This document shows positions 5,484 to 21,114 of a stretch of 64,000 nt of DNA, piece after piece. The position numbers were made by a program, and so were the translations under genes. The DNA is from Candidatus Obscuribacteraceae bacterium. GTDB lineage: Bacteria; Cyanobacteriota; Vampirovibrionia; Obscuribacterales; Obscuribacteraceae. Where the stretch lies: positions 1,107,435 through 1,171,434 of the forward strand of contig JBGAHS010000002.1 in assembly GCA_044226015.1 (NCBI GenBank). The letters run 5' to 3'. Below the pieces are notes generated by a model that did not search any database, was not told where the DNA came from, and was given only the letters and a program-made list of their open reading frames with translations. Every line of letters begins with the position of its first letter. Position 1 is the first letter of the stretch.

Positions 5484-6563
5484 TTAGTTGCCGAACTTCT
5501 TCTCAAGAAGACCAGGAGCGATTTTCTCTATTCTTCGAAGATCGTCAGCCACTCTCTCATCAGAACTCATCTTGTTACGATCTTTTCCAGCACTTGCCGA
5601 GCTGTTTTCAGCGTGAGGAATCTTAGGCGCACCTGGTCCTTCGCTATGGGGTCCGTCACCACCTTTGCCGCCACCGCCGCCGCCCTGACCTTCCATGCGG
5701 CCGAATGAAACGCCCTGATTTCCGCGAGTCACAGAGCGGAAGCCTTCTGCATCGAAGGATACTTCAGCTCCGTCCTTGAAGCTTACAGTTGTTACACCAT
5801 CTCTATCGGTCACTACCTTTTTAACGTTGTCACCTTTGATAGTGTTGGATCCGTCCGGGTTGAGAGTTATGCGATCTCCATCGGGAGTGAATAACGATTC
5901 TTTTCCATCTTCACGAACAATGTGGTCGCCGGTGGGCAACTCTTCAACTCCATCCTTGATTTCTTCGGAGCTTTCCGCATGACTTTGCGCGCTCATGTCG
6001 CCAATCTTGTCCGAAATTTCTTGATTCTTCAGCTCATTCCCAATTTTGCCGAGACTATCCGCCTTAGGATTCAGCGCATCCTGAAGTTTGTCGGTTTTTC
6101 CAGCTGCTTCAGAATTTTCCTTATCCAAGCGATTTGTTTTTGCATCGTCTGGCATCTTATTTACTTGACCATGATGAAATTCATGTTGCTGCGTGACTGG
6201 GTCAACTTCTGCACCGTTCTTGTTGCGTTCTTGATCTTTCGAAGAATTGTCCTTATCGGACTTAGCATTATTCTCGCCAGTACCTTTCTTCAGGTCTTCG
6301 TGTTCCTTAGAAGACTTTCCTTCCTCTCCCTGCTTACGCTTCTCGACCTGCTTGTCCTTATCGTCACCAAGCTCGAGCTTAGGTAGACCTGAATCTTTGT
6401 CACTCTTGCTATTGTTGGTCAATGAATCGCTGATAGCTCCTACTTTGGCTCCAGCTGCACCAAAAACTTCTTCTCTGAACTTATCTCCACTCTCTGCAGC
6501 GCCGCCTTTATCGTTCGATTCGACGTTCTCAACCTTCTGTTTGTTCAAGTTATCATCTGCCAT
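5484..6563 (-). CDS. Hypothetical protein, paralog 1 of the local family (charged low-complexity N-terminal region plus shared LPTGD domain)
   Basis: 359 aa; GGAGGG SD; domain DGVEELPTGD...GVSF aligns by eye with three neighbouring ORFs. Confidence 0.8.
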   Translation of the reverse strand: MADDNLNKQKVENVESNDKGGAAESGDKFREEVFGAAGAKVGAISDSLTNNSKSDKDSGLPKLELGDDKDKQVEKRKQGEEGKSSKEHEDLKKGTGENNAKSDKDNSSKDQERNKNGAEVDPVTQQHEFHHGQVNKMPDDAKTNRLDKENSEAAGKTDKLQDALNPKADSLGKIGNELKNQEISDKIGDMSAQSHAESSEEIKDGVEELPTGDHIVREDGKESLFTPDGDRITLNPDGSNTIKGDNVKKVVTDRDGVTTVSFKDGAEVSFDAEGFRSVTRGNQGVSFGRMEGQGGGGGGKGGDGPHSEGPGAPKIPHAENSSASAGKDRNKMSSDERVADDLRRIEKIAPGLLEKKFGN

Positions 6564-6823: not shown

Positions 6824-8263
6824 ATGATGAAAACTAGATTTCAGCTGCTCGTTCTAAGCTTCACACCTATTCTGCTCTTGCAGCAGAACGCATGCTGGGG
6901 ACAAATTTCAAGCAAAGCTCCAAATAAAGTAGTGAAGAAAGCAATGAAAGCAACTCCGCACAATATAGTAGGGACCTGGTCGGGCACTCTGGTTCTCCCA
7001 AACTCGTTAACTATGCCACTCGTTTTTCGATTTGCCGAACTCAAAGGTGTTTACTCAGGTAGTCTCGAAAGCCCTAGCCAGAGTTCGCAACAAATCGATT
7101 TTGATTCAGTGGGGCAGGATGAGAATGGAAACATACACGCGAAAATTGCAAAGTTACTCGCGGAGTTCTCAGGGCACCTGGAAGAAGATGGCAAAGTTCT
7201 AAAAGGCACCTGGACTCAGAATGGACAATCAATGCCAGCTAGTTTCAAATCAGTTGGCGAGTACAGTGCAAAAAAGCATGCGCAGGAACCGATTCCTCCA
7301 TTTCCTTACAGCTCTGAGGATATCAGCTTCAAGAGTGGCGACCATCAAATTTCCGGGACAATCACTTTCCCGCGTGGTGCGAGTAATTCACCTGCCATCG
7401 TACTGATTCACGGCAGTGGACCTCACGACCGCGATGAAAACATATTGGGTCACAAACCATTTCTAGTATTAGCTGATCACCTCACGAAAAATGGCATTGC
7501 TGTTCTTCGATATGACAAACGAGGTTGCAAGAAATCTACTGGGAATTATTCAAGTGCTACCAGCGCAGACTTTGCAGATGATGCTGTCGCCGCAGTGGAA
7601 TTTCTGAAAACACGTTCTGAGATAGACCAAAAACACATTGGACTTCTTGGACACAGTGAGGGTGGAGTCATTGCTCCTATGGTGGCAAACAGGATGCCAA
7701 ACGACATAAGCTTTGTGGTTTTGATGGCGGGGTCGGCGCTAACAGGCGAGAAAATACTACTAGGGCAGGTCCGCGCGTTATCAGCGAACCCAACTGATGC
7801 CACAAAAGAGCTGACACTCGCAAGCAAAACCTATGAAATCCTAAAAGCCGAGCCAAATAACGATAAAGCTATGGACAAGATTCTCTTGATGCGAAAGGAA
7901 ATTGGAAAGGATGATTCAAAGAATTTGGCGGATGTAAAACGCGATCTAGCCGCGCTAACCAGCCCATGGTACCGCTATTTCATCAGCTACGATCCCAGCG
8001 TCGAACTTTCAAAGTTGAAGTCTCCCGTTCTTGCCATAAATGGTGACAAAGACAAGCAGGTGCTGGCTGATGAGAATCTGGCACGAATCAAGGAATGTCT
8101 GCAGTCAGCAGGCAATACCAAAGTGAGAATTGAAAAGATTCCCAATACAAATCATCTGATGCAAACATGCGCCACAGGTATGCCACAGGAATATTCCGCA
8201 ACAGATGAAACGATATCACCTGCGGTGCTGAAGCTGATCAGCGATTGGATAAAAGCGCAGTAA
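6824..8263 (+). CDS. Secreted alpha/beta-fold serine hydrolase
   Basis: Signal-peptide-like N-terminus; HGSGPHDRD, RYDKRG, GHSEGG nucleophile elbow, GDKDKQV and TNHL. Confidence 0.85.
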   Translation: MMKTRFQLLVLSFTPILLLQQNACWGQISSKAPNKVVKKAMKATPHNIVGTWSGTLVLPNSLTMPLVFRFAELKGVYSGSLESPSQSSQQIDFDSVGQDENGNIHAKIAKLLAEFSGHLEEDGKVLKGTWTQNGQSMPASFKSVGEYSAKKHAQEPIPPFPYSSEDISFKSGDHQISGTITFPRGASNSPAIVLIHGSGPHDRDENILGHKPFLVLADHLTKNGIAVLRYDKRGCKKSTGNYSSATSADFADDAVAAVEFLKTRSEIDQKHIGLLGHSEGGVIAPMVANRMPNDISFVVLMAGSALTGEKILLGQVRALSANPTDATKELTLASKTYEILKAEPNNDKAMDKILLMRKEIGKDDSKNLADVKRDLAALTSPWYRYFISYDPSVELSKLKSPVLAINGDKDKQVLADENLARIKECLQSAGNTKVRIEKIPNTNHLMQTCATGMPQEYSATDETISPAVLKLISDWIKAQ

Positions 8264-8311
8264 GAGCAGCACAATTCTCTGGATTGCTCAGGTAATCATG
8301 CTGAATGCCTG

Positions 8312-8343
8312 CTTGCACTGCCACTGGAAAGTGGCAGTGCAAG
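8312..8343. terminator. Hairpin between convergent genes
   Basis: CTTGCACTGCCACT-GGAA-AGTGGCAGTGCAAG, perfect 14-bp stem. Confidence 0.7.
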
Positions 8344-8458
8344 ATCAAAGGAATCGGATGCAGGCGACTGAACTCATCTCCATCGTTTCTGAGTTCAATC
8401 GCTTAGATACGCTTGGGTAATGCTAACGCGAATCTACGAGAGCGCCAACTCTATATCG

Positions 8459-9880
8459 TCAGAGTGGTTTGTGTGGCAAGCGAGGGTCCTTCAAAAGGTA
8501 ACCGTGCATTACTTTGCCATTCAGAAAGAAAACGGCTTCGTTGCCCTTTCTAATTGACTGAAAGCCATTCTTTCCAAAGGTCACTTTTTCTCCATCTCCC
8601 AAAGTTATTGTAGTGACACCATCCTTAGTGGTAGCGACAGACTTCACGTCACCTTTCACAGTATAGGTTCCGTCCTCTTTTAGCGAGATTAGATCGCCAT
8701 TTCCTGTAAGAAGGCGTTGTTCACCATCAAGTCGATCGAGCAAATCACCTGTCGGCAGCTCCTCAGGCTCACCTTCCTCGAATCTGGGTTTCGGTTCAAT
8801 TCCACCTTCACCAATCCTCTCTGTGATTGGTGGGAATGGAAATGGACGCGGCTCGATGCCGCCTTCTCCTACAGCAAGAGTTATTGGAGGTCGAGGTTCG
8901 ATGCCACCTTCACCTACCATTTCGGTGATAGGCGGTCGCGGTTCGATGCCGCCCTCTCCCACAGCGAGAGTTATTGGAGGTCGAGGATCTCTGCCACCTT
9001 CTCCCACCATTTCGGTGATAGGCGGTCGTGGTTCGATGCCGCCCTCTCCCACAGCAAGGGTTATTGGAGGACGAGGATCCCTGCCACCTTCACCTACCAT
9101 TTCGGTGATAGGTGGTCGTGGTTCGCTAAAAGGCGGTTTGAGAATGGGACCGGCTTCCTCAGCAGCATTAGTCGTCGTTGGCGGTTTGAGAATGGGACCG
9201 GCTTCTTCAGCAGCATTGGTCGTCGTTGGCGGTTTGAGAATGGGACCGGCTTCCTCAGCAACATTGGTCGTCGTTGGCGGTTTGAGAATGGGACCGGCTT
9301 CTTCTCTGAAATTTGTTGGGTCCTTGAGAATCCGTCCGGCTTCTTCTACCAGATTCGATGTCTCTGGTGGCTTTGATCCTGTTCCAGCCTCATCTCTTAG
9401 GTTCGATGTCTCTGGTGCCTTCGTTCCTGAGCCAGACTCATCTCTTAGGTTCGATGTCTCCGGTGCCTTTGTTCCTGTTCCAGACTCATCTCTCAAGTTC
9501 GATGTCTCCGGTGCCTTTTCCCCTGTGCCACCTTCTCCTCGCAAATTAGAGGTTGGAGGGGTAAACGGATACCGGCCGGTCGTACCGTCCTCTCCAACCA
9601 TTTTACTAGTTGGACCGTGATGCTGGTCACCACCCGGCTTAGAACCAGTTCCCTCCTCGCCTTTCATTTTCGTTAGTGCACGTTCCCCATCATTATGTTC
9701 ATCGTTTTTTTGCACACTGCTGTAAGTTCGTCGCTCAGCTAAATCTGCGATGAACAAATTCTGCCTGTCTCTTGTGACCTCATCATGAAAGCTGTTGTAC
9801 GCGCGATCTCGATTCGAGGATTCAGCGTTGCCAACGTCTTTTTGTTGGATATCCTCATGCGGTCTTACTTGCTCAACCAT
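8459..9880 (-). CDS. Putative multicore graspetide (plesiocin-type) precursor fused to the shared C-terminal domain; paralog 2
   Basis: Start re-called at ATG 9880 (GAGGAG SD), 473 aa; LFIADL leader motif at 9740-9757; ~18 repeats such as TTTNAAEE and ITLAVGEG; ATP-grasp gene 1.3 kb upstream. Confidence 0.75.
   Translation of the reverse strand: MVEQVRPHEDIQQKDVGNAESSNRDRAYNSFHDEVTRDRQNLFIADLAERRTYSSVQKNDEHNDGERALTKMKGEEGTGSKPGGDQHHGPTSKMVGEDGTTGRYPFTPPTSNLRGEGGTGEKAPETSNLRDESGTGTKAPETSNLRDESGSGTKAPETSNLRDEAGTGSKPPETSNLVEEAGRILKDPTNFREEAGPILKPPTTTNVAEEAGPILKPPTTTNAAEEAGPILKPPTTTNAAEEAGPILKPPFSEPRPPITEMVGEGGRDPRPPITLAVGEGGIEPRPPITEMVGEGGRDPRPPITLAVGEGGIEPRPPITEMVGEGGIEPRPPITLAVGEGGIEPRPFPFPPITERIGEGGIEPKPRFEEGEPEELPTGDLLDRLDGEQRLLTGNGDLISLKEDGTYTVKGDVKSVATTKDGVTTITLGDGEKVTFGKNGFQSIRKGNEAVFFLNGKVMHGYLLKDPRLPHKPL
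8804..9676 (-). repeat. Coding tandem repeats in three sub-families (45-bp and 48-bp units)
   Basis: PRPPIT[EM/LA]VGEGG x6 plus ITERIGEG; PPTTTN[V/A]AEEAGPILK x3; PETSNL[RD/VE]E x4. Confidence 0.9.
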
Positions 9881-10199
9881 GTTATTTCTCCTCATAAACA
9901 GCCAAAAACAGAAGCCGCAAAGCCTCAAATACCCTTACCTACACTTACTAAATTCGGACGCACCTTTCGGTGCATTTACTACCATACTGATCAACAACGA
10001 CTGAGACCACGTAACTTACAGCAAAAGACTTACGCGCTTCCGCAAAGCTGTATGCGTGGTATCACATAAGCACCACTCATTAAACGCGCTTAGCAAACGC
10101 AGTTGCCAAACGCAATTGCCAAATGCAAGCGCTCCTCGCCAGAAATGTGATCCTCACGAGGATACGCTCATATTTTCTGAGATAGATCTGCTTCGATCT

Positions 10200-10937
10200 T
10201 TACTCTACTTTTGGAGCTGATGGCGCAGTATGAGCATCACCCTTTGTCCCACCAGATTTCTTCGAACCTTCTGAGTAAGAGCCTTTGCCACCACCTCCAG
10301 CACTGCCACCGCCATATTCGCCCCAACTTTCAGAATAGGATCCACCAGTGCCGCCACCGCCACCACCGCCAATACGACCGTTCTTTTCATCGAGCTTAAA
10401 CTTGGGCAAAGAGGATTTCTCAAGGCTGATTATATGCGCAGTATGACCATCTCTGCTAACGCTTGAGATGCCATCTTTAGTGAAGGAGACCTTCGCTCCG
10501 TCATTGAAGGTAACCGTGGTCCTTCCGTCTTTGTCTTTGTCTATCGCCTTCACATTTCCTTTTATAGAATAGGTGCCATCTGGTTCCAGCAGAACCCGGT
10601 CACCTTTTTCGGTGTAAAGTGATTGTCTATCACCCTCAGTAATGAGAGTGTCACCGGTAGCGAGCTTTCGCATGCCGTCGCCAGTGACTATCAAAGCAGA
10701 GCTTTCTAGGCGTTTAGTATTCTTCACTTCATTCATCACATCAAACGCAGAGCGCTTCATGTCTTGATTCTCTGGCGATTGATTTTCTTTTTTATTCTCT
10801 ACAGATCTGGGTTGACGTTGATCCAACTCCCTGTAAAGTTCATCTATCAGCCGCGAACTAGCGCTTTGCGAAGAATCATTTGTAGAGTTTGCATTCTTCG
10901 TGTTTTCGATATCATTCTTTTCAATTTGATCTGCCAT
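10200..10937 (-). CDS. Hypothetical protein, paralog 3 (shared domain plus Gly-rich tail)
   Basis: Start re-called at ATG 10937 (AAGGAG SD); domain DGMRKLATGD...VSRDG. Confidence 0.8.
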   Translation of the reverse strand: MADQIEKNDIENTKNANSTNDSSQSASSRLIDELYRELDQRQPRSVENKKENQSPENQDMKRSAFDVMNEVKNTKRLESSALIVTGDGMRKLATGDTLITEGDRQSLYTEKGDRVLLEPDGTYSIKGNVKAIDKDKDGRTTVTFNDGAKVSFTKDGISSVSRDGHTAHIISLEKSSLPKFKLDEKNGRIGGGGGGGTGGSYSESWGEYGGGSAGGGGKGSYSEGSKKSGGTKGDAHTAPSAPKVE

Positions 10938-11215
10938 GGCTTGCCGCTCCTTCCTTGAGGACTCGCAACATCCTAGAGCGGATATGCGAAGTCTTAGACA
11001 GCCAGCCGTTTCAAACACCGATCTCCAAAATTATGAAAGAAAGAAGCTCTACAATCTATACGCGAGTTCGCAAAATTGATTGCGTAAAAGCGCTAAGTAT
11101 ATTCGCCAGGTAAATTTACTCAGGTATTTCGCCAAGAAAATTCGGAAACAAGTTTCTCTGAAGCCGATTTTCTCTTGCGCCCCATTATCTTGTCCAGGAT
11201 TCGTGCAAAGTCAGG

Positions 11216-12154
11216 TTAGCCTTCGATCAAGAATCTTGCCAATTCGCGATCAATCGGAAAACCACTCCGCATCTGGAATCCTATAAACATAGGTGATGGA
11301 TTGCATTCAAGAAGAACATACTCACCATTACTAAATTTGACGTCAACACCGCTGAAGACCATGCCACATATTGATGCAGCCTTGACGCACATTTCTTTTA
11401 CATGCTCAGGAACGTCGACCACTTTGAGTTCGCCTTCGTTTCCACGATAGTCCAGTGCGTCTGATTCTATTTCAATTGCGCAAAGGCATTTACCGTTTAG
11501 AACCCAGACACGAATATCGGCACCCGCATGCAGTTTTTGAAACAGTACAGGAGCACTGCTCAGCATCTTCAATCTTTCTTTCCCCAGGTCTTCATCTCTC
11601 AAGAGCTTGCAAGATGCACCACCTGCAACAGGCTTGTAGATCACATCGCCATGTTCTTTTTTGAATTCCAGCAATTCTTCTGGATTATTGGTCACTAGCG
11701 TAGCGGGAACTTTGATGCCAGCTCTCATAAGCATCACTAATTGATGAGGCTTCAAGAAATGGAGATGAAAACACTCCACTGGATTCACAACACGTTCAGC
11801 TTGAAACGCAACGGCGCGCATCCATGATCCAAGTAAAGATTGTCGCTCACGTTCGGCTACGTATGCGCTATACCAACTTTTCATGCTGGGCAGAAGTCCC
11901 GCATCAATTTGCTCTTGCAAATCATAAGGAGGTTCGCTGTAATAAACCGTTCTGTTATAAAAGGCATTGATACCATCAAGGTTTTTGCCATTGTAAATCG
12001 GAACTTGATCCCGCAAGCTGAACGAAGTCTTGTCTGGAAAATTCAACGTGTCAATTACAACAGCTTCCGCTCCGAGTTCTTCCACTACAGACTTCATGTG
12101 TTCCGTGTGCTGCTCACCGGCTCCGCCTACAATTCCTACTTTTGAAGACCTCAT
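11216..12154 (-). CDS. RimK-like ATP-grasp ligase, probable graspetide synthetase
   Basis: KPHQL, GIKVPATLVTN, VIYKPVAGG, PVLFQ, DIRV, LDYR, GVDVK and LECNPSPMF motifs; ATG at 12154 after a GGAGG SD. Confidence 0.85.
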   Translation of the reverse strand: MRSSKVGIVGGAGEQHTEHMKSVVEELGAEAVVIDTLNFPDKTSFSLRDQVPIYNGKNLDGINAFYNRTVYYSEPPYDLQEQIDAGLLPSMKSWYSAYVAERERQSLLGSWMRAVAFQAERVVNPVECFHLHFLKPHQLVMLMRAGIKVPATLVTNNPEELLEFKKEHGDVIYKPVAGGASCKLLRDEDLGKERLKMLSSAPVLFQKLHAGADIRVWVLNGKCLCAIEIESDALDYRGNEGELKVVDVPEHVKEMCVKAASICGMVFSGVDVKFSNGEYVLLECNPSPMFIGFQMRSGFPIDRELARFLIEG

Positions 12155-12297: not shown

Positions 12298-13476
12298 CTA
12301 TTTTGAATCCAAATAGGGTAAGAGGTTCTTCAATCGCTCAGGCAAGTGGTTTCGCTGATCATCTTTAGGGCTTCCGTTGGGAAGGTCCAGGCGATGCTCC
12401 CATTTACTTGGGGGAAGCTCTCGCTTCTCTATCTTGGGTGATTGCGAGCCGTTTTCCATGAGATCGTGAAGTCGTTTGTTGGATCGCAGGAATTCCACGG
12501 TCTTACCGTTTTTCGAGATGCTCTGAATGCCGCTGGAATCGAAATTGATCTGACTGCCATCAGCAAAAGTCACTTTGCTTGAACCGTCCTTGGCTGTTGA
12601 TACTTCTCTAACATCTCCCTTGACACTGTAGGTTCCGTCCTTGTTTATCGTCAGCTGATTTCCGCTCGGAGTGAAAATAGTTTGGGCACCGTCCTTGGTG
12701 ACGAGATAATCACCTGTAGATAGTTTTTCAACACCATCTTTCAGCGGAGGGAAAACATAGTCGATTCTGTGACTTAAGCGGTCACCGATGCTTCCGGCAC
12801 GATCGTCAAAGCGGCCTTGCTGGTCAGACTCGAATCTTTTACTTGGCGAGGACGAATCCTTGCTGTCAGAACTTTGATCAACCGGCGTCGGCCGAAGTAT
12901 TTTGTCAGACACAGTATCTTCAAAGCGAAGCGGCTTGTCGAGCACCGCAGGACGCGGTTCATGGACCTGCTTAGCTGGCGATTCAGAATTGCGGTCCTCT
13001 TGCTCTGGCTTTCCGGGTCCACAAATTATTACTGAATAGCGTTCTCCTCCTAGAATCGCCTGCCTGCCGTCAGATGAGCTAGCAGGCGTATTGGGATTAC
13101 GCTCGTCCCTATCTTTTGGTCCACAAACAATTAATGGGTCCCCTGCTATCGCCGCTTTCGAGGTGTCAAGCAAGCCAGCCGGCACATTGAGATTCCGCCC
13201 GTCTTTTAGTTTTGCTGAAGACGCGGAATCTCCTGCTACAGGAATTAAACCGGCTCCATACACACCGTTTTCCTTATTAGGAGATGATACCAAAGCCTCC
13301 TTTCCGTTTTGAATCAAGGGATTTGCTAAGCCATAAAGGATTTCTGCATGCCCTTCGGACAAGATCTTGCCTCTCGACCTCTCAGCATTCACTTCGTTCA
13401 TTAGTACATCAACAGCGCCCCCAGAGCTTGAACTGTTCTGTTCAGCGTTGTCGTTTTGTTTTGATCTATCTGTCAT
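12298..13476 (-). CDS. Hypothetical protein, paralog 4 (shared domain)
   Basis: Start re-called at ATG 13476 (GGAGGA SD); domain DGVEKLSTGD...GKTVEF. Confidence 0.8.
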   Translation of the reverse strand: MTDRSKQNDNAEQNSSSSGGAVDVLMNEVNAERSRGKILSEGHAEILYGLANPLIQNGKEALVSSPNKENGVYGAGLIPVAGDSASSAKLKDGRNLNVPAGLLDTSKAAIAGDPLIVCGPKDRDERNPNTPASSSDGRQAILGGERYSVIICGPGKPEQEDRNSESPAKQVHEPRPAVLDKPLRFEDTVSDKILRPTPVDQSSDSKDSSSPSKRFESDQQGRFDDRAGSIGDRLSHRIDYVFPPLKDGVEKLSTGDYLVTKDGAQTIFTPSGNQLTINKDGTYSVKGDVREVSTAKDGSSKVTFADGSQINFDSSGIQSISKNGKTVEFLRSNKRLHDLMENGSQSPKIEKRELPPSKWEHRLDLPNGSPKDDQRNHLPERLKNLLPYLDSK

Positions 13477-13754
13477 GTCCTGGTCCTCCAATCAAACGGA
13501 TACTCGATCCATTATTCTTTTCAAACCAGCCTTGAATCACCCGATTCATGCATAACACATACCTAGAATAGTGCTTGAGAATAAATGCGATAAGTATGTG
13601 CAAACGCGCCGACATAGACAGACCGATTCTGCATTCAATTTGCAAGTTTCCGCAACGACTTGAGTGCGCTTGTTGACGTAGCGGATTTGCTTTCACACTG
13701 CAATCAGGTACCACTCTTTCCTATCAGTATTTTCCTTTTTGTTCATCAGGATTG

Positions 13755-14320
13755 TTCTGCTTTTATCGATTCTCTGATGATCAGTACATCTGCTCTTGCT
13801 GTTCTCGCATAGCCTTCTTGTTTCTTTGCTTTGCTTTGTTCTTATCGATTCTCTGATGATCAGTACATCTGCTCTTGCGGTTTTCGCATCGCCTTCTTGT
13901 TTCTTCACTTTGCTTTGTTCAGCTCTTATCGATTCTCTGATGATAGGTACATCTGCTCTTGCGGTTTTCGCATAGCCTTCTTGTTTCTTTGCTTTGCTTT
14001 GTTCTGCTCGTGTCGATTCTCTGATGATCGGTACATCTGCTCTTGCGGTTTCGCATCGCCTTCTTGTTTCTTTGCTTTGCTTTGTTCAGCTCTTATCGAT
14101 TCTCTGATGATCGGTACATCTGCTCTTGCGGTTTTCGCATAGCCTTCTTGTTTCTTTGCTTTGTTCAGCTCTTATCGATTCTCTGATCATCAGTACATCT
14201 GCTCTTGCGGTTTTCGCATCGCCTTCTTGTTTCTTTGCTTTGCTTTGTTCTGCTCGTGTCGATTCTCTGATGATCGGTACATCTGCTCTTGCGGTTTTCG
14301 CATTGCCTTCTTGTTTCTTC
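13755..14320. repeat. Intergenic tandem repeat, ~7 copies of a 79-84-bp pyrimidine-rich unit
   Basis: TCGATTCTCTGAT recurs at about 13766, 13845, 13929, 14013, 14096, 14175 and 14259. Confidence 0.9.
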
Positions 14321-14372: not shown

Positions 14373-14897
14373 ATGGTCAAACTGTCTATGATCTATGTCC
14401 AAAATGATAGTAAAATGGTGCTTGTCGAATTCGAACCGAATCCAAGCAAGATGACACTTCTGTCTGTTATAAAAACCCAACTCAGGCATCAGGAAATAAA
14501 TCTAGTGATGTTTTTGGCTGGTTTGGCGTTGTTCAGGATTCCGCTGCAGCATTATTTTACGCTAGCGCGATACCAGCATTATGGAATTTGTCTGGCCGTA
14601 TGGGCGATGGGATTCGTCTTCCAAGTTATTTGGTCATGGAAGAGCCTCACGAAGCTCGGGCGAGCATCCCTTTTGAGCACCGGAATCTATCTTGCTGCAT
14701 TTGCTCTCGTTTTCTACTACAGTCCCTGGCTTGATACCCGAATGGCTGTTCAAACCGAAGAACAGGATATTCAGCGCATCTGCTATGCAACAATTGGGGC
14801 TCTGTTTGGTGGCTTCACAGTTCTTCTATGGCTCTTCTGGCTGTTCGAGCGCAAAGACTCTGAACGAACACAAACACCAAAGGAGAAAGAAAACTGA
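14373..14897 (+). CDS. Membrane protein with about 4 TM segments; true start may be downstream
   Basis: Four hydrophobic stretches; stop overlaps the next gene start. Confidence 0.65.
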   Translation: MVKLSMIYVQNDSKMVLVEFEPNPSKMTLLSVIKTQLRHQEINLVMFLAGLALFRIPLQHYFTLARYQHYGICLAVWAMGFVFQVIWSWKSLTKLGRASLLSTGIYLAAFALVFYYSPWLDTRMAVQTEEQDIQRICYATIGALFGGFTVLLWLFWLFERKDSERTQTPKEKEN

Positions 14898-17628: not shown

Positions 17629-20600
17629 ATGGGTGGAGACAAACTTACCAGCAAGCCAACAGACCAAGCGCCTTTGCCAGAGCAGGGCTCAAAACTGAGT
17701 CTTCACTTTGATGCATCTGGTGCTCCCCAAACGCGCTCAGCCGAAACCAGTACTGAAAAGAGTCCTTTCAAAACCATCGATAAACAGGGCGACAACTCGA
17801 ACTCAACAAATCAGATTGAATCGTATTTAGCTCTGCAAGAAAGAGCTCGCGCACCATACGAGGTTCCAAAAAACCTTCAGGAAGGTCAGAAAAACATTGC
17901 TCGGGATAGAGAAGCCACAAACACAGCTGGAATCCCGAAAGAACGCACAATTACTACTCAAACCGGCGAACAGATTAAAGGCATCAAAGTTGTTGATGAC
18001 GTAACGAAGGAACACCGCTTCATAGCGGCCGATAAAGACGGCAAGTTTAACCAGTATCAAATTCAAGAGAATGGCAAAAAACTGCAGCCGCTCGATACAT
18101 CCGGCAAACCAGTAGGCGATGCAATTATGACCAACAAAGCAAAGCCTATGGAAGGTTCACGCAATACAGCAGAAGAAGCGGCTAAAGCCATGGATGGCAA
18201 TGGCAAGCGTCATGAGTTACCCGAGTGGGCAAGCAAACGAGATGGCGAAAAGGGGCGCGGCGAGAACAAGGAATCCGCTGACAAAGGCAATTCAACTGCG
18301 AAATCGCAAGACGGACTAAAGACAGATCCAGCAAAATCTGATGCGCCAAAAATAGATTCACCTAAAGGCGAAAACAAAACAAATCCAGACTCCACCTCAA
18401 CCGAAAATCCGAAGCCTAGACAAGAGTGGAACCGAGACAAAGATGGCGATGGCAAGCCCGATAGCCGCCCTATTCGCGACCGTGATGGCGATGGCAAACC
18501 AGACTTTCGCCCTATCCGCGACCGCGATGGCGATGGAAAACCAGATTTCCGCCCCGGGAAAGACCGCGATGGCGAAAACAAGCTCGACGCAAGCAAGAAA
18601 GATGCAGGTAACAAGGACGCGCCTAAAGATCAAAGCAAAGACAATCCAAAACCTGATTCAACAGATCCGCGCGGAACTCGCGGAGAGATCGACAATACGC
18701 GCTTTGGTAAACCAATTCAGCCAGACGCAGGCGAAAAACCAGGACAGTTCCAACAACCAAAGCAAGCACAGGATTGGCAGAAGCCAGACCTGGGAAATCG
18801 TCCCAACCGAAATGAATTCAACAATCAAACTAATCCGCAAAAACCAGATGGTCCAATTCCAGCTTCAAATAGGAATTTCGAAAATTCAAATTCGCGAGCG
18901 GACGGAAGACCTGAGAATCCTAACCTGAGACCAGACGGAAGACCCGATTTCAACGGACGCCCTGACAGAGGCGACTTGCAGAATAGAGATTTTCCCGGAC
19001 GACGTGATTTTTCTGGACGTGATGACGTGCCAGGGCGCAGAGAACTTGGAGCACGCGAAGACCTAGCAGGAAAGTTTGACCTGAAAGGACGAGTCGATAT
19101 GAACTCCCGCACCGATTTTGCTGCCGCGCGTACTGAATTGGCAAATTTGAATGGCGCCAAAGGAGAGCCCAATCTTCGAGCTGGACGAGATATCCCTGGT
19201 GATCTACGAGCAGATGGCGGAATGCGAGCCCTAGACAGAGCTCTAACAGCGGACATTATGAGCCGAAGCAACGGACATGACCTTTCCGGACGCGACCTTA
19301 TCGGTCGCGAACTGGCAGGTAAAGACTTTGCAGGGCGAGGGCTGGACGGTAGATCTTTGAGTCAGATACTTGATGGTCAGAGACTCAGTTTAAAAGACAA
19401 CACGATGCAGACATTCAGGTCTAATGCCGATCTGCTCACGAATTTGAACCGAAGCCTGGGCGGATCCCAGCTGGACTCCCTTTCAAAACCGGGCGGACGT
19501 TCCGGAATTGATGGAGAGCACGCGGGACTCAGCGCAAGAGGACTTGACGGGAAGCTCGCCGACGGCAGACTTTCAGAAAGCAAACTGGACGCTAAAGAAC
19601 TTGGTAAATCAAGCAGTATGCTTCAAAACGCTATGTCCGAATTGAGCGGAAAAATGCTCGCCACCAAGCTACTCGATATGACGCAAAAACTTGAAATCGG
19701 CAAAATACCGAATCAGGAGCAAACAAACAACGCCATCCGTGAGATGTCCAGGATTCAACGAAACGAAATGGGTACAGCCCAGGACCTTCTCTCTTCTATC
19801 CAGAAAAATCTTTCGCAAAAGAACAACGAGATTGCTTCAAATTCGAATAACAATAACAGCTTTATCGCAAAGAACCTGGAAATTGGTCAGCAACAAGCAT
19901 TGCGCAGCCGCGAACAGGAAAATAATAAGGAACAGAAAACGGAAACCATCACAAAGAACGTTGACAGCATCGCTAATAAATCCCAACAAAACCAACAGAA
20001 TCAAATTCTGACCGCGAAAAATGCTGAGTCTACGAGCCAAAGCCAGACGCAGAAACAAGAACAAACCAGAACTGGTCGCGATGCTGAAGAGCAAACGAAT
20101 CAAAACGCAAAGAACTTCCAAGCAAATCAGAACCTGGTTCAAGCCGAGAAGACTCAAGACAGCAAGCAAGATTCAATTACAAACAAAAACCAAGATAACA
20201 AGCTAGATGACAAAAAACATCTCGAGGACGACAAGAAAACGAAGCAAGACCTTCGAGACGACAGCAAGCAAGACCAGATGGCTGGACTGATTGCAGCAGC
20301 AAAGCTGAAAGAACTAAAAGACAAAGAAAAAGGTAAAGAAAAGGAAGACATAAAAGACAAGAGCAAGCAAGATCCCAAACAAAAAACTCGCTTGAAATAT
20401 CGGGTGAAGAAAAACGATACTCTGGCGCTGATAGCCGAGAAGTTCCTAGGCAATTCGGCACATGCCGCATCCATTTTCCATATCAACAGAACACTCATTC
20501 CAGTCACCACCTATAGTGGCAAGTCCTTCGCTAACCCGCAAGTTGACTCGATGATCTGGATTCCAACAGACGATGATATCGAAATATTCAAGAACTCAGG

Positions 20601-21114
20601 TGTCTTGAAAAACTACGCGGAGATCTCCTTTGCAGGTGTCACTTACGCATCGGCAGAAGATGAATTAGCAGCACGCTTCGGTCAGCGCTGGTTCGGACCG
20701 TCGGATGAGGAGAAGAGAATTAGCCGCGCAAACTTCTCTGATTCTGATAGACAGATTCGCCGAACCAACATAGAAAACCAGCTTGGCGATTTTAACCCGA
20801 GCAATAAAGAATTGGACGGACGCATCCGTTACACCGTACGTCTTGGCGAAACTTTGAAGAGCATCGCTCTAAAGCACCCGCTGTTAAAAGATGTAGAAAT
20901 GTGGAAACTCATTGCTCGAGTAAATAACCTGAGCGAAGAAACAGACGAGAAAGGGTGTCCGCTAGCTTCACTTAAGCGTGGAACAAGCATTGTGCTTCCA
21001 ACACATGAGGAAGCGGAAAATTTCAGAGCCAGCAAGCCTGTGCGCAAACCGAGTTCTGAACAAATGATGCCAGTTCTGCCAATTTCAGAGATCAGCGCGA
21101 TCATGCAAGGCTAG
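17629..21114 (+). CDS. Large low-complexity protein with two C-terminal LysM-like domains
   Basis: 1161 aa; YRVKKNDTLALIAEKFLG and YTVRLGETLKSIA LysM motifs; RDxDGDGKPD repeats; Q/N/K-rich linker. Confidence 0.8.
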   Translation: MGGDKLTSKPTDQAPLPEQGSKLSLHFDASGAPQTRSAETSTEKSPFKTIDKQGDNSNSTNQIESYLALQERARAPYEVPKNLQEGQKNIARDREATNTAGIPKERTITTQTGEQIKGIKVVDDVTKEHRFIAADKDGKFNQYQIQENGKKLQPLDTSGKPVGDAIMTNKAKPMEGSRNTAEEAAKAMDGNGKRHELPEWASKRDGEKGRGENKESADKGNSTAKSQDGLKTDPAKSDAPKIDSPKGENKTNPDSTSTENPKPRQEWNRDKDGDGKPDSRPIRDRDGDGKPDFRPIRDRDGDGKPDFRPGKDRDGENKLDASKKDAGNKDAPKDQSKDNPKPDSTDPRGTRGEIDNTRFGKPIQPDAGEKPGQFQQPKQAQDWQKPDLGNRPNRNEFNNQTNPQKPDGPIPASNRNFENSNSRADGRPENPNLRPDGRPDFNGRPDRGDLQNRDFPGRRDFSGRDDVPGRRELGAREDLAGKFDLKGRVDMNSRTDFAAARTELANLNGAKGEPNLRAGRDIPGDLRADGGMRALDRALTADIMSRSNGHDLSGRDLIGRELAGKDFAGRGLDGRSLSQILDGQRLSLKDNTMQTFRSNADLLTNLNRSLGGSQLDSLSKPGGRSGIDGEHAGLSARGLDGKLADGRLSESKLDAKELGKSSSMLQNAMSELSGKMLATKLLDMTQKLEIGKIPNQEQTNNAIREMSRIQRNEMGTAQDLLSSIQKNLSQKNNEIASNSNNNNSFIAKNLEIGQQQALRSREQENNKEQKTETITKNVDSIANKSQQNQQNQILTAKNAESTSQSQTQKQEQTRTGRDAEEQTNQNAKNFQANQNLVQAEKTQDSKQDSITNKNQDNKLDDKKHLEDDKKTKQDLRDDSKQDQMAGLIAAAKLKELKDKEKGKEKEDIKDKSKQDPKQKTRLKYRVKKNDTLALIAEKFLGNSAHAASIFHINRTLIPVTTYSGKSFANPQVDSMIWIPTDDDIEIFKNSGVLKNYAEISFAGVTYASAEDELAARFGQRWFGPSDEEKRISRANFSDSDRQIRRTNIENQLGDFNPSNKELDGRIRYTVRLGETLKSIALKHPLLKDVEMWKLIARVNNLSEETDEKGCPLASLKRGTSIVLPTHEEAENFRASKPVRKPSSEQMMPVLPISEISAIMQG

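Follow-up and report, generated by a model that had tools for sequence, protein, structure and literature searches.

A candidate plesiocin-type graspetide locus in Candidatus Obscuribacterales with an 18-unit precursor fused to a beta domain

Plesiocin-type graspetides are best described for the precursor PsnA2 and its ATP-grasp ligase PsnB, and characterised products of this type have three or four cores. In PsnB, the Phe of the leader docks in a pocket, Arg213 presents the core Glu for phosphorylation, and the inner ester ring is closed before the outer one (as described in bioRxiv 10.1101/2021.03.09.434688). Plesiocin is reported to inhibit chymotrypsin and elastase, with an Arg variant adding trypsin (PMC10125368), and its potency as a serine-protease inhibitor is reported to climb with ring number (PMC13097080). 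Here we describe a related locus in a 64,000-nucleotide stretch of a Candidatus Obscuribacteraceae bacterium (assembly GCA_044226015.1, contig JBGAHS010000002.1, positions 1,107,435 to 1,171,434; hereafter the window, whose positions are used throughout). It encodes a PsnB-like ligase and a 473-residue precursor that joins an LFIADL leader and 18 core units to a C-terminal beta domain, here called domain X. Judged from sequence, the system very likely belongs to the group-2 (plesiocin-type) graspetides, and by analogy with PsnB we are confident that at least some of the units would be cyclised. With somewhat better than even confidence, we propose that the two genes yield a ring-bearing, likely exported multivalent protease-inhibitor protein that probably retains its domain.

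The ligase gene (11216..12154, reverse strand) encodes a predicted macrocyclase of 312 residues. As originally predicted, it is co-oriented with the precursor gene, lies two genes upstream of it and carries a DYR motif, at residues 235-237. Its best match in the PDB is PsnB (7DRM; 176 bits, E = 7.8e-51), with the next entry at 55 bits, RimK at about 34, LysX-type entries at 30 and MdnB/MdnC/CdnC-type entries at 28-32; for comparison, a cyanobacterial ligase linked to TTLALGEE cores reaches just 102 bits against 7DRM. PsnB residues were mapped by eye along the PDB alignment, with a 20-residue offset, and the positions were then checked in the sequence. The core-binding Arg72, Arg101 and Arg213 and the D(F/W)R loop of PsnB are present as R68, R102, R215 and DYR235-237 (Tyr for Phe), and the equivalents of the leader pocket are Y173, R194, L195, L198, V203 and F205, with K183 replacing R181. 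Identical in the two enzymes are R72, R101, R213, Y171, K172 (K174 in the ligase), R192, L196, V201 and F203 of PsnB; substituted are I193 (by Leu), R181 (Lys), T180 (Cys), R195 (Met) and the DFR loop (DYR). Arg101 and much of the leader pocket are described as specific to group 2a (bioRxiv 10.1101/2021.03.09.434688). The LFIADL leader for its part retains the Phe and Asp of LFIEDL.

No NCBIfam model, neither graspetide nor RimK/LysX/GshB, exceeds its cut-off for the ligase: TIGR00768 scores 66.7 bits against 143.4, LysX 45.7 against 275.6 and GshB 30 against 272. Its Pfam matches are to RimK (E = 1e-12) and GSH-S_ATP. An 80-row quick tree places the ligase in a 19-row clade (Shimodaira-Hasegawa-like approximate likelihood ratio test support 98) with other Obscuribacterales ligases, among ligases with adjacent precursors and apart from the MvdC/D-TgmB rows; in this tree RimK forms a long branch without a clear placement, and the rows do not include PsnB. 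Neither the NCBIfam scores, the PDB ranking nor the tree groups the enzyme with RimK, LysX or GshB. A microviridin system of the MvdC/MvdD type was considered and rejected, given a single ligase in the genome (a search of the genome with the ligase matches only itself), scores of 56 and 41 bits against cut-offs of 425 and 475, and no PFFARFL leader.

The precursor gene (8459..9880, reverse strand), with GAGGAG 7 nucleotides 5' of its ATG, reads in translation as an N-terminal signature, the leader, the cores and domain X. The leader motif falls at residues 42-47 (9740..9757, reverse strand), where the original prediction had placed it, and matches both LFIEDL of PsnA2 and the LFIx[DE]L..RxSxS of ligase-linked precursors. 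The core array (residues 69-359; 8804..9676, reverse strand) contains 18 units with Pro/Gly spacers and DNA repeats of 45, 48 and 90 base pairs; all ten unit types listed earlier recurred in the numbers claimed, and with them the proposal of several core types in one precursor. Of the 18, three (residues 203, 219 and 235) are strict TTxxxxEE, one is TSxxxxED, and 14 keep the inner pair only, being of a single-ring type with one Thr or Ser five residues ahead of the Glu; a Thr-less remnant, RFEEGE, follows the 18th unit at residue 366. The pattern [TS]x4E[EGDSA] occurs 22 times, with overlaps, across residues 67-365, as compared with 2.3 +/- 1.4 (maximum 9) in 10,000 shuffles, a null that takes no account of tandem duplication. 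More telling, the i to i+5 spacing is kept in every one of the ten distinct unit types. Scoring all 39,167 open reading frames (ORFs) of the genome with a similar core pattern gives 12 for the precursor and at most 2 for any other.

The fusion of the core array to domain X is almost certainly real. Single contigs from public runs X1 and X2 (8300-8931) and X3 (8669-9200) span the junction, and contigs in X1 and X2 span the stretch from leader to ligase; these two runs belong to separate studies, and either study may have supplied the DNA described here. The count of 18 units is that of this assembly, and the exact number is assembly-dependent because the public assemblies compared break inside the 48-base-pair repeat; the middle of the array (about 9135-9275) is there fragmented into short contigs with a summed depth of two to three times. 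The X3 strain differs in the precursor by 10 synonymous and 3 non-synonymous changes, some of which may be misplaced repeat copies; the stop is kept, and one change turns TS into TT. The metagenomes that hold close homologues come from sludge and bioreactors.

Ligase and precursor occur together. The ligase was found in 6 of 107 genomes of the order, one being the query's own, and a search with a relative's precursor finds the same six. Precursors in the other ligase-bearing genomes are 250-430 residues long where complete and have LFI[ES/KD][ED]L leaders; two precursors in ligase-bearing genomes are unlinked from the ligase. For more distant ligases, 19 of the 25 loci from metagenomes and 20 of the 29 from the phylum have TxAxGEE-type cores within the DNA available, several of the misses being short contigs, and the leaders beside them read LFIx[DE]LxxRxSxS, as in the 473-residue precursor. 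Together with the PsnB-specific residues and the leader motif, this co-occurrence and the precursors beside related ligases support the plesiocin-group assignment of the original prediction. A second species has a comparable fusion (P0123), with the leader, 12 units and a domain X identical at 63 of 85 positions (74%). None of its units is a strict TTxxxxEE, and all its unit types keep Thr/Ser-x4-Glu. The ligases of the two fusion species are 88% identical and the N-terminal 76 precursor residues 63%; P0123 and the 88%-identical ligase probably share one 15,115-base-pair contig.

These searches also brought up further loci. In G069, a precursor (L049:823-2121, reverse strand) has an LFIDEL leader, divergent TTRAYPES cores and a different C-terminal segment of roughly 100 residues; it and its ligase are on different contigs, and the ligase has DDR in place of the DYR loop. 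A second type of precursor, unlinked from the ligase (L052:1414-2529, reverse strand, in G062, and P0124), combines an LFIKEL leader with mixed units (TNRFEEGG, TDMVGEGG), about 21 at most. In non-photosynthetic Cyanobacteriota (L056/L057/L093/L094), PsnB-like ligases face ORFs with TxxxPEGG repeats rather than TTxxxxEE, possibly a further core type. Small-genome relatives of the same class (L069, L075, L084) pair PsnB-like ligases with TTMA[VL]GEEGG precursors, one of which intersperses its cores with non-repeat segments.

Domain X covers about residues 373-457 of the precursor (8510..8764, reverse strand), an 85-residue domain with no Pfam family over cut-off. The C-terminal folded domain claimed earlier is upheld by a structure model of ten predicted beta strands (predicted local distance difference test score 92). 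The same residues match three neighbouring genes and two elsewhere in the genome. The neighbours are stand-alone domain-X proteins on the reverse strand: one of about 245 residues between ligase and precursor (10200..10937), which has no leader or cores, one upstream of the ligase (12298..13476) and one at the downstream end of the array (5484..6563). Domain X occurs in 14 of the 107 genomes and has 325 library matches at E <= 0.001. PF07202 (Tcp10_C) matches 18 of 35 members at E <= 0.05 (best 1.4e-7), and the domain-X profile matches Sas-4 at E = 7.9e-6, built from pieces of at most 15 bits; the best Foldseek match (E = 0.08, template modelling score 0.34) is not a significant fold match. 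The likeness to the Tcp10_C/CPAP G-box beta-sheet is consistent with a shared hairpin-repeat pattern only.

The genomic setting suggests how the fusion arose. In five relatives (G059, G060, G062, G064 and G065), the same flanked interval holds domain-X genes and no ligase or precursor, and three of them keep a ligase-precursor cassette elsewhere in the genome. One flank consists of genes that we take, from their motifs, to be pyrB/pyrC-like; the other is the orthologue of 14373-14897. Since these relatives carry domain-X genes at the site without the ligase, the simplest history is likely the insertion of a mobile ligase-precursor cassette into a conserved tandem array of domain-X genes. Other domain-X proteins carry variable linkers, including unrelated repeats, at the position of the leader and cores, and the leader and cores would then have taken the place of one member's variable low-complexity linker. 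Among 36 domain-X ORFs in the loci and the 150 best library matches, only the query precursor and P0123 combine leader and cores with domain X. Just upstream of the domain-X array, the window contains an 84-base-pair tandem repeat (13752-14319; 6.9 copies, 89% match) with no clear long ORF, and beyond it, on the forward strand, a 1161-residue low-complexity protein with repeats and a C-terminal LysM match (17629-21114).

Ahead of the leader, residues 1-40 (9761..9880, reverse strand) form an acidic stretch and a short amphipathic segment that resemble the N-termini of domain-X proteins and of other proteins of the genome. A profile of 96 domain-X N-termini gives the precursor 14.8 bits, a score reached by none of 500 shuffles; P0123 and two unfused precursors likewise beat all 500. 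The signature is possibly a lineage-wide export signal. The profile also ranks many genome proteins high, including giants of 2,500-5,000 residues (C11:406378-421575, C11:21541-29250). No transporter gene lies within the locus, and the three Peptidase_C39 matches in the genome (open frames of 243, 2322 and 2886 residues) are far from it; in the relative G062, an ABC transporter without a C39 match adjoins the precursor. A double-Gly processing site is absent between leader and first core, with no GG, GA or GS in residues 48-68; such a site does not define the class, as about half of graspetide precursors are reported to have one (PMC8939145). Convergent with the precursor gene lies that of a secreted-type alpha/beta hydrolase (6824..8263, forward strand) with peptidase-family Pfam matches. 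Its best matches in G059, G062 and G065 are on other contigs than the ligases of those genomes, and it is probably a bystander.

By analogy with PsnB, the ligase would engage the leader at LFIADL and form Thr/Ser-Glu ester rings throughout the array, each Glu being phosphorylated with ATP and then attacked by the Thr or Ser five residues upstream. With an inner ring in every unit and a further, outer ring in four of them, the water losses would total at most 22, and probably fewer. The group-2 ligase RcpB is reported to cyclise VTxxxxED (Thr10-Glu15) and TTxxxED variants (PMC11626197); because these have the spacing of the ITxxxGEG and TNFREE units here, the single-ring units are plausible substrates. 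The donor pair is followed by different residues in different units (K, N, T, E or L), which would widen the range of proteases blocked. The product would be a likely exported, multivalent inhibitor protein of mixed specificity, probably keeping domain X, a role favoured because plesiocin inhibits serine proteases with a potency that rises with ring number. That domain X is retained and functional in the product has about an even chance.

Several observations weigh against this proposal. Only three of the 18 units have the canonical form, and the turnover of single-Thr or single-Glu variants by PsnB is reported to be more than fourfold slower (bioRxiv 10.1101/2021.03.09.434688); modification may thus be incomplete, especially in Ser-donor units, and six Ser-donor or Gly-less units may stay open. 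PsnB is not placed in the ligase tree, a quick one in which the RimK branch is long. Domain X is missing from the precursors of the other five ligase-bearing genomes, so the domain is not needed for the chemistry, and its family is uncharacterised, with no known function. Of eight precursors, just four have an N-terminal signature that scores above the shuffles, and no export machine was identified. Finally, the spacers are rich in Lys, Arg, Pro and Gly and could be cleaved by general proteases.

In the best-surviving alternative, the chemistry is the same, domain X and the N-terminal signature serve only to route or stabilise the precursor, and the exported precursor is cut in its spacers by proteases to give a mixture of monocyclic and bicyclic peptides, in the manner of ordinary ribosomally made, modified peptides. 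Unfused precursors of 250-370 residues in relatives indicate that the cores work without domain X, the spacers contain many basic residues, a secreted-type hydrolase with peptidase-family matches adjoins the precursor, and the genome has its three C39 matches. However, no double-Gly site follows the leader, the C39 matches are far from the locus and the hydrolase does not travel with the ligase, and we consider such release unlikely, though the most serious competitor.

Less probable still is that the fusion is a tolerated insertion accident, with domain X a passenger, most of the degenerate units an uncyclised linker and just three or four canonical units modified. It accords with the rarity of the fusion (two proteins among 121 precursors and the 150 best domain-X matches), with P0123 having no strict TTxxxxEE, and with the unrelated repeat linkers that other domain-X proteins bear at the same position. 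Against it, the in-frame domain is 74% identical between species whose ligases are 88% identical, above the 63% of the N-terminal 76 residues; every unit type in both species keeps Thr/Ser-x4-Glu; and the strain changes are mostly synonymous, one of them converting TS to TT. A ligase of the RimK/LysX/GshB type with no connection to the repeats is a very improbable reading of the enzyme, since the enzyme's Pfam matches to RimK (E = 1e-12) and GSH-S_ATP and the lack of an NCBIfam graspetide model at cut-off are outweighed by RimK-family scores that are also below cut-off (66.7 against 143 bits), by 176 bits for PsnB against about 34 for RimK, and by co-occurrence with precursors in six of six genomes.

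Beyond the ring-bearing inhibitor protein that we favour, a bolder picture may be drawn, tentatively and with less confidence. The ligase would be a protein-modifying enzyme that places up to 22 ester rings, with at least five loop types, on a 473-residue protein that is never cut, exported by an as yet undescribed route of the Obscuribacterales keyed to the N-terminal signature, the result being a multi-specific protease shield displayed by a new beta domain. The fusion would be one of many independent ones (Calx-beta, I9-like, Okeania-type tails), and plesiocin arrays a general but overlooked post-translational decoration of secreted proteins.

In the accessible text of the graspetide literature consulted (PMC8939145, PMC12291112, PMC13097080, PMC9576775, PMC11626197, PMC10125368), we found no natural group-2 precursor with a fused domain; Lee 2020, Ramesh 2021 and supplements may list some. 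Among the papers listed for Obscuribacterales together with ribosomally synthesised and post-translationally modified peptides, none mentions the order. One survey kept candidates of at most 150 residues and excluded some large proteins (PMC8939145), so precursors like this one fall outside its candidate set. Long precursors are reported in other graspetide groups (PMC13097080), and graspetide chemistry on folded proteins is reported to have been achieved by engineering (PMC12291112). If cyclised, the precursor can show in a natural setting how many rings a single PsnB-type enzyme adds at a distance from the leader, and whether cores of the single-ring, Ser-donor and short types serve as substrates; it would also reveal whether folded proteins are decorated by graspetide chemistry in nature. 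It gives a first handle on an uncharacterised domain family and, for an uncultured lineage, on a possible export signal. The locus does not define a new class of graspetide, and the broader theme recurs in many genomes.

A profile of 14 core arrays found 675 proteins among 8,000 scored candidates, the best 120 of which were analysed. Without P0123 and P0124, the median among the 118 listed matches is 10 units by one pattern, with at least 14 in 17 of them and 18 in none; P0124, of the query's lineage, has 21 unit matches. A tail of at least 100 residues or a head of at least 150 lies outside the cores in 69 of the 118, known from sequence as long segments that are not proven folded, and 28 share one Okeania-type tail. 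Pfam names few domains in 22 long-segment precursors (I9 and Nif11 over cut-off, HEAT and PrcB_C weakly). The earlier description of a much longer precursor with a C-terminal domain holds against characterised plesiocin and not against the group, where long and domain-bearing precursors are common. In a 600-residue cyanobacterial protein (L091:5821-7623, reverse strand; = L082, G288:C2), Calx-beta domains precede eight TTLALGEEGG-type cores, and a PsnB-like ligase lies directly downstream. In P0277 and some 27 proteins like it (Okeania, Trichodesmium, Hydrocoleum, Dapis), 8-14 plesiocin-type cores are followed by a conserved 180-residue tail, which has no Pfam match and resembles a calcium-roll export tail by eye only. 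In P0346 and its relatives, plesiocin-type cores are linked to an N-terminal region that matches Peptidase inhibitor I9, which suggests that one chain combines inhibitors of two types; HEAT-like tails occur in other Planctomycete-type precursors.

Compared with described systems, the locus is closest to PsnA2/PsnB of Plesiocystis pacifica (group 2/2a; PDB 7DRM-7DRP), sharing with it one ATP-grasp ligase whose pocket and active-site residues are the same, an LFIx[DE]L leader and tandem Thr-x4-Glu cores. In contrast to the four units of PsnA2, it has 18, only three of them canonical, and among them are Ser donors, ends of the form D/E-[S/A/G] and units of single-ring type; 41 residues precede its leader, a folded 85-residue domain follows its cores, and its ligase lies upstream with an unrelated paralog in between. 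RcpA/RcpB of Rheinheimera likewise mixes core types in one precursor, with single-ring VTxxxxED and short TTxxxED reported as cyclised, but has three cores, a leader-cutting C39-ABC transporter and no fused domain (PMC11626197). The corallotide precursor CorA (about 22 kDa, group 15) and groups 34, 35 and 41 also have long precursors with repeated motifs, but other ligase groups and motifs (KxxxD in CorA), and the accessible text of PMC13097080 mentions no fused folded domain for them. The Calx-beta protein (L091/P0274), the proteins with the Okeania-type 180-residue tail and the Planctomycete I9-like proteins resemble the precursor in joining plesiocin-type arrays to larger non-core segments; such domain-bearing group-2 precursors from the databases differ in their domains, in mostly HPF-type rather than LFI-type leaders, and in having more canonical TTLAxGEE cores. 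As far as sequences tell, the precursor described here is among the longest in a wide and little-described spectrum. What is new is its particular domain and the origin of that domain, which comes from an array of local paralogs and is absent from the precursors of most relatives.

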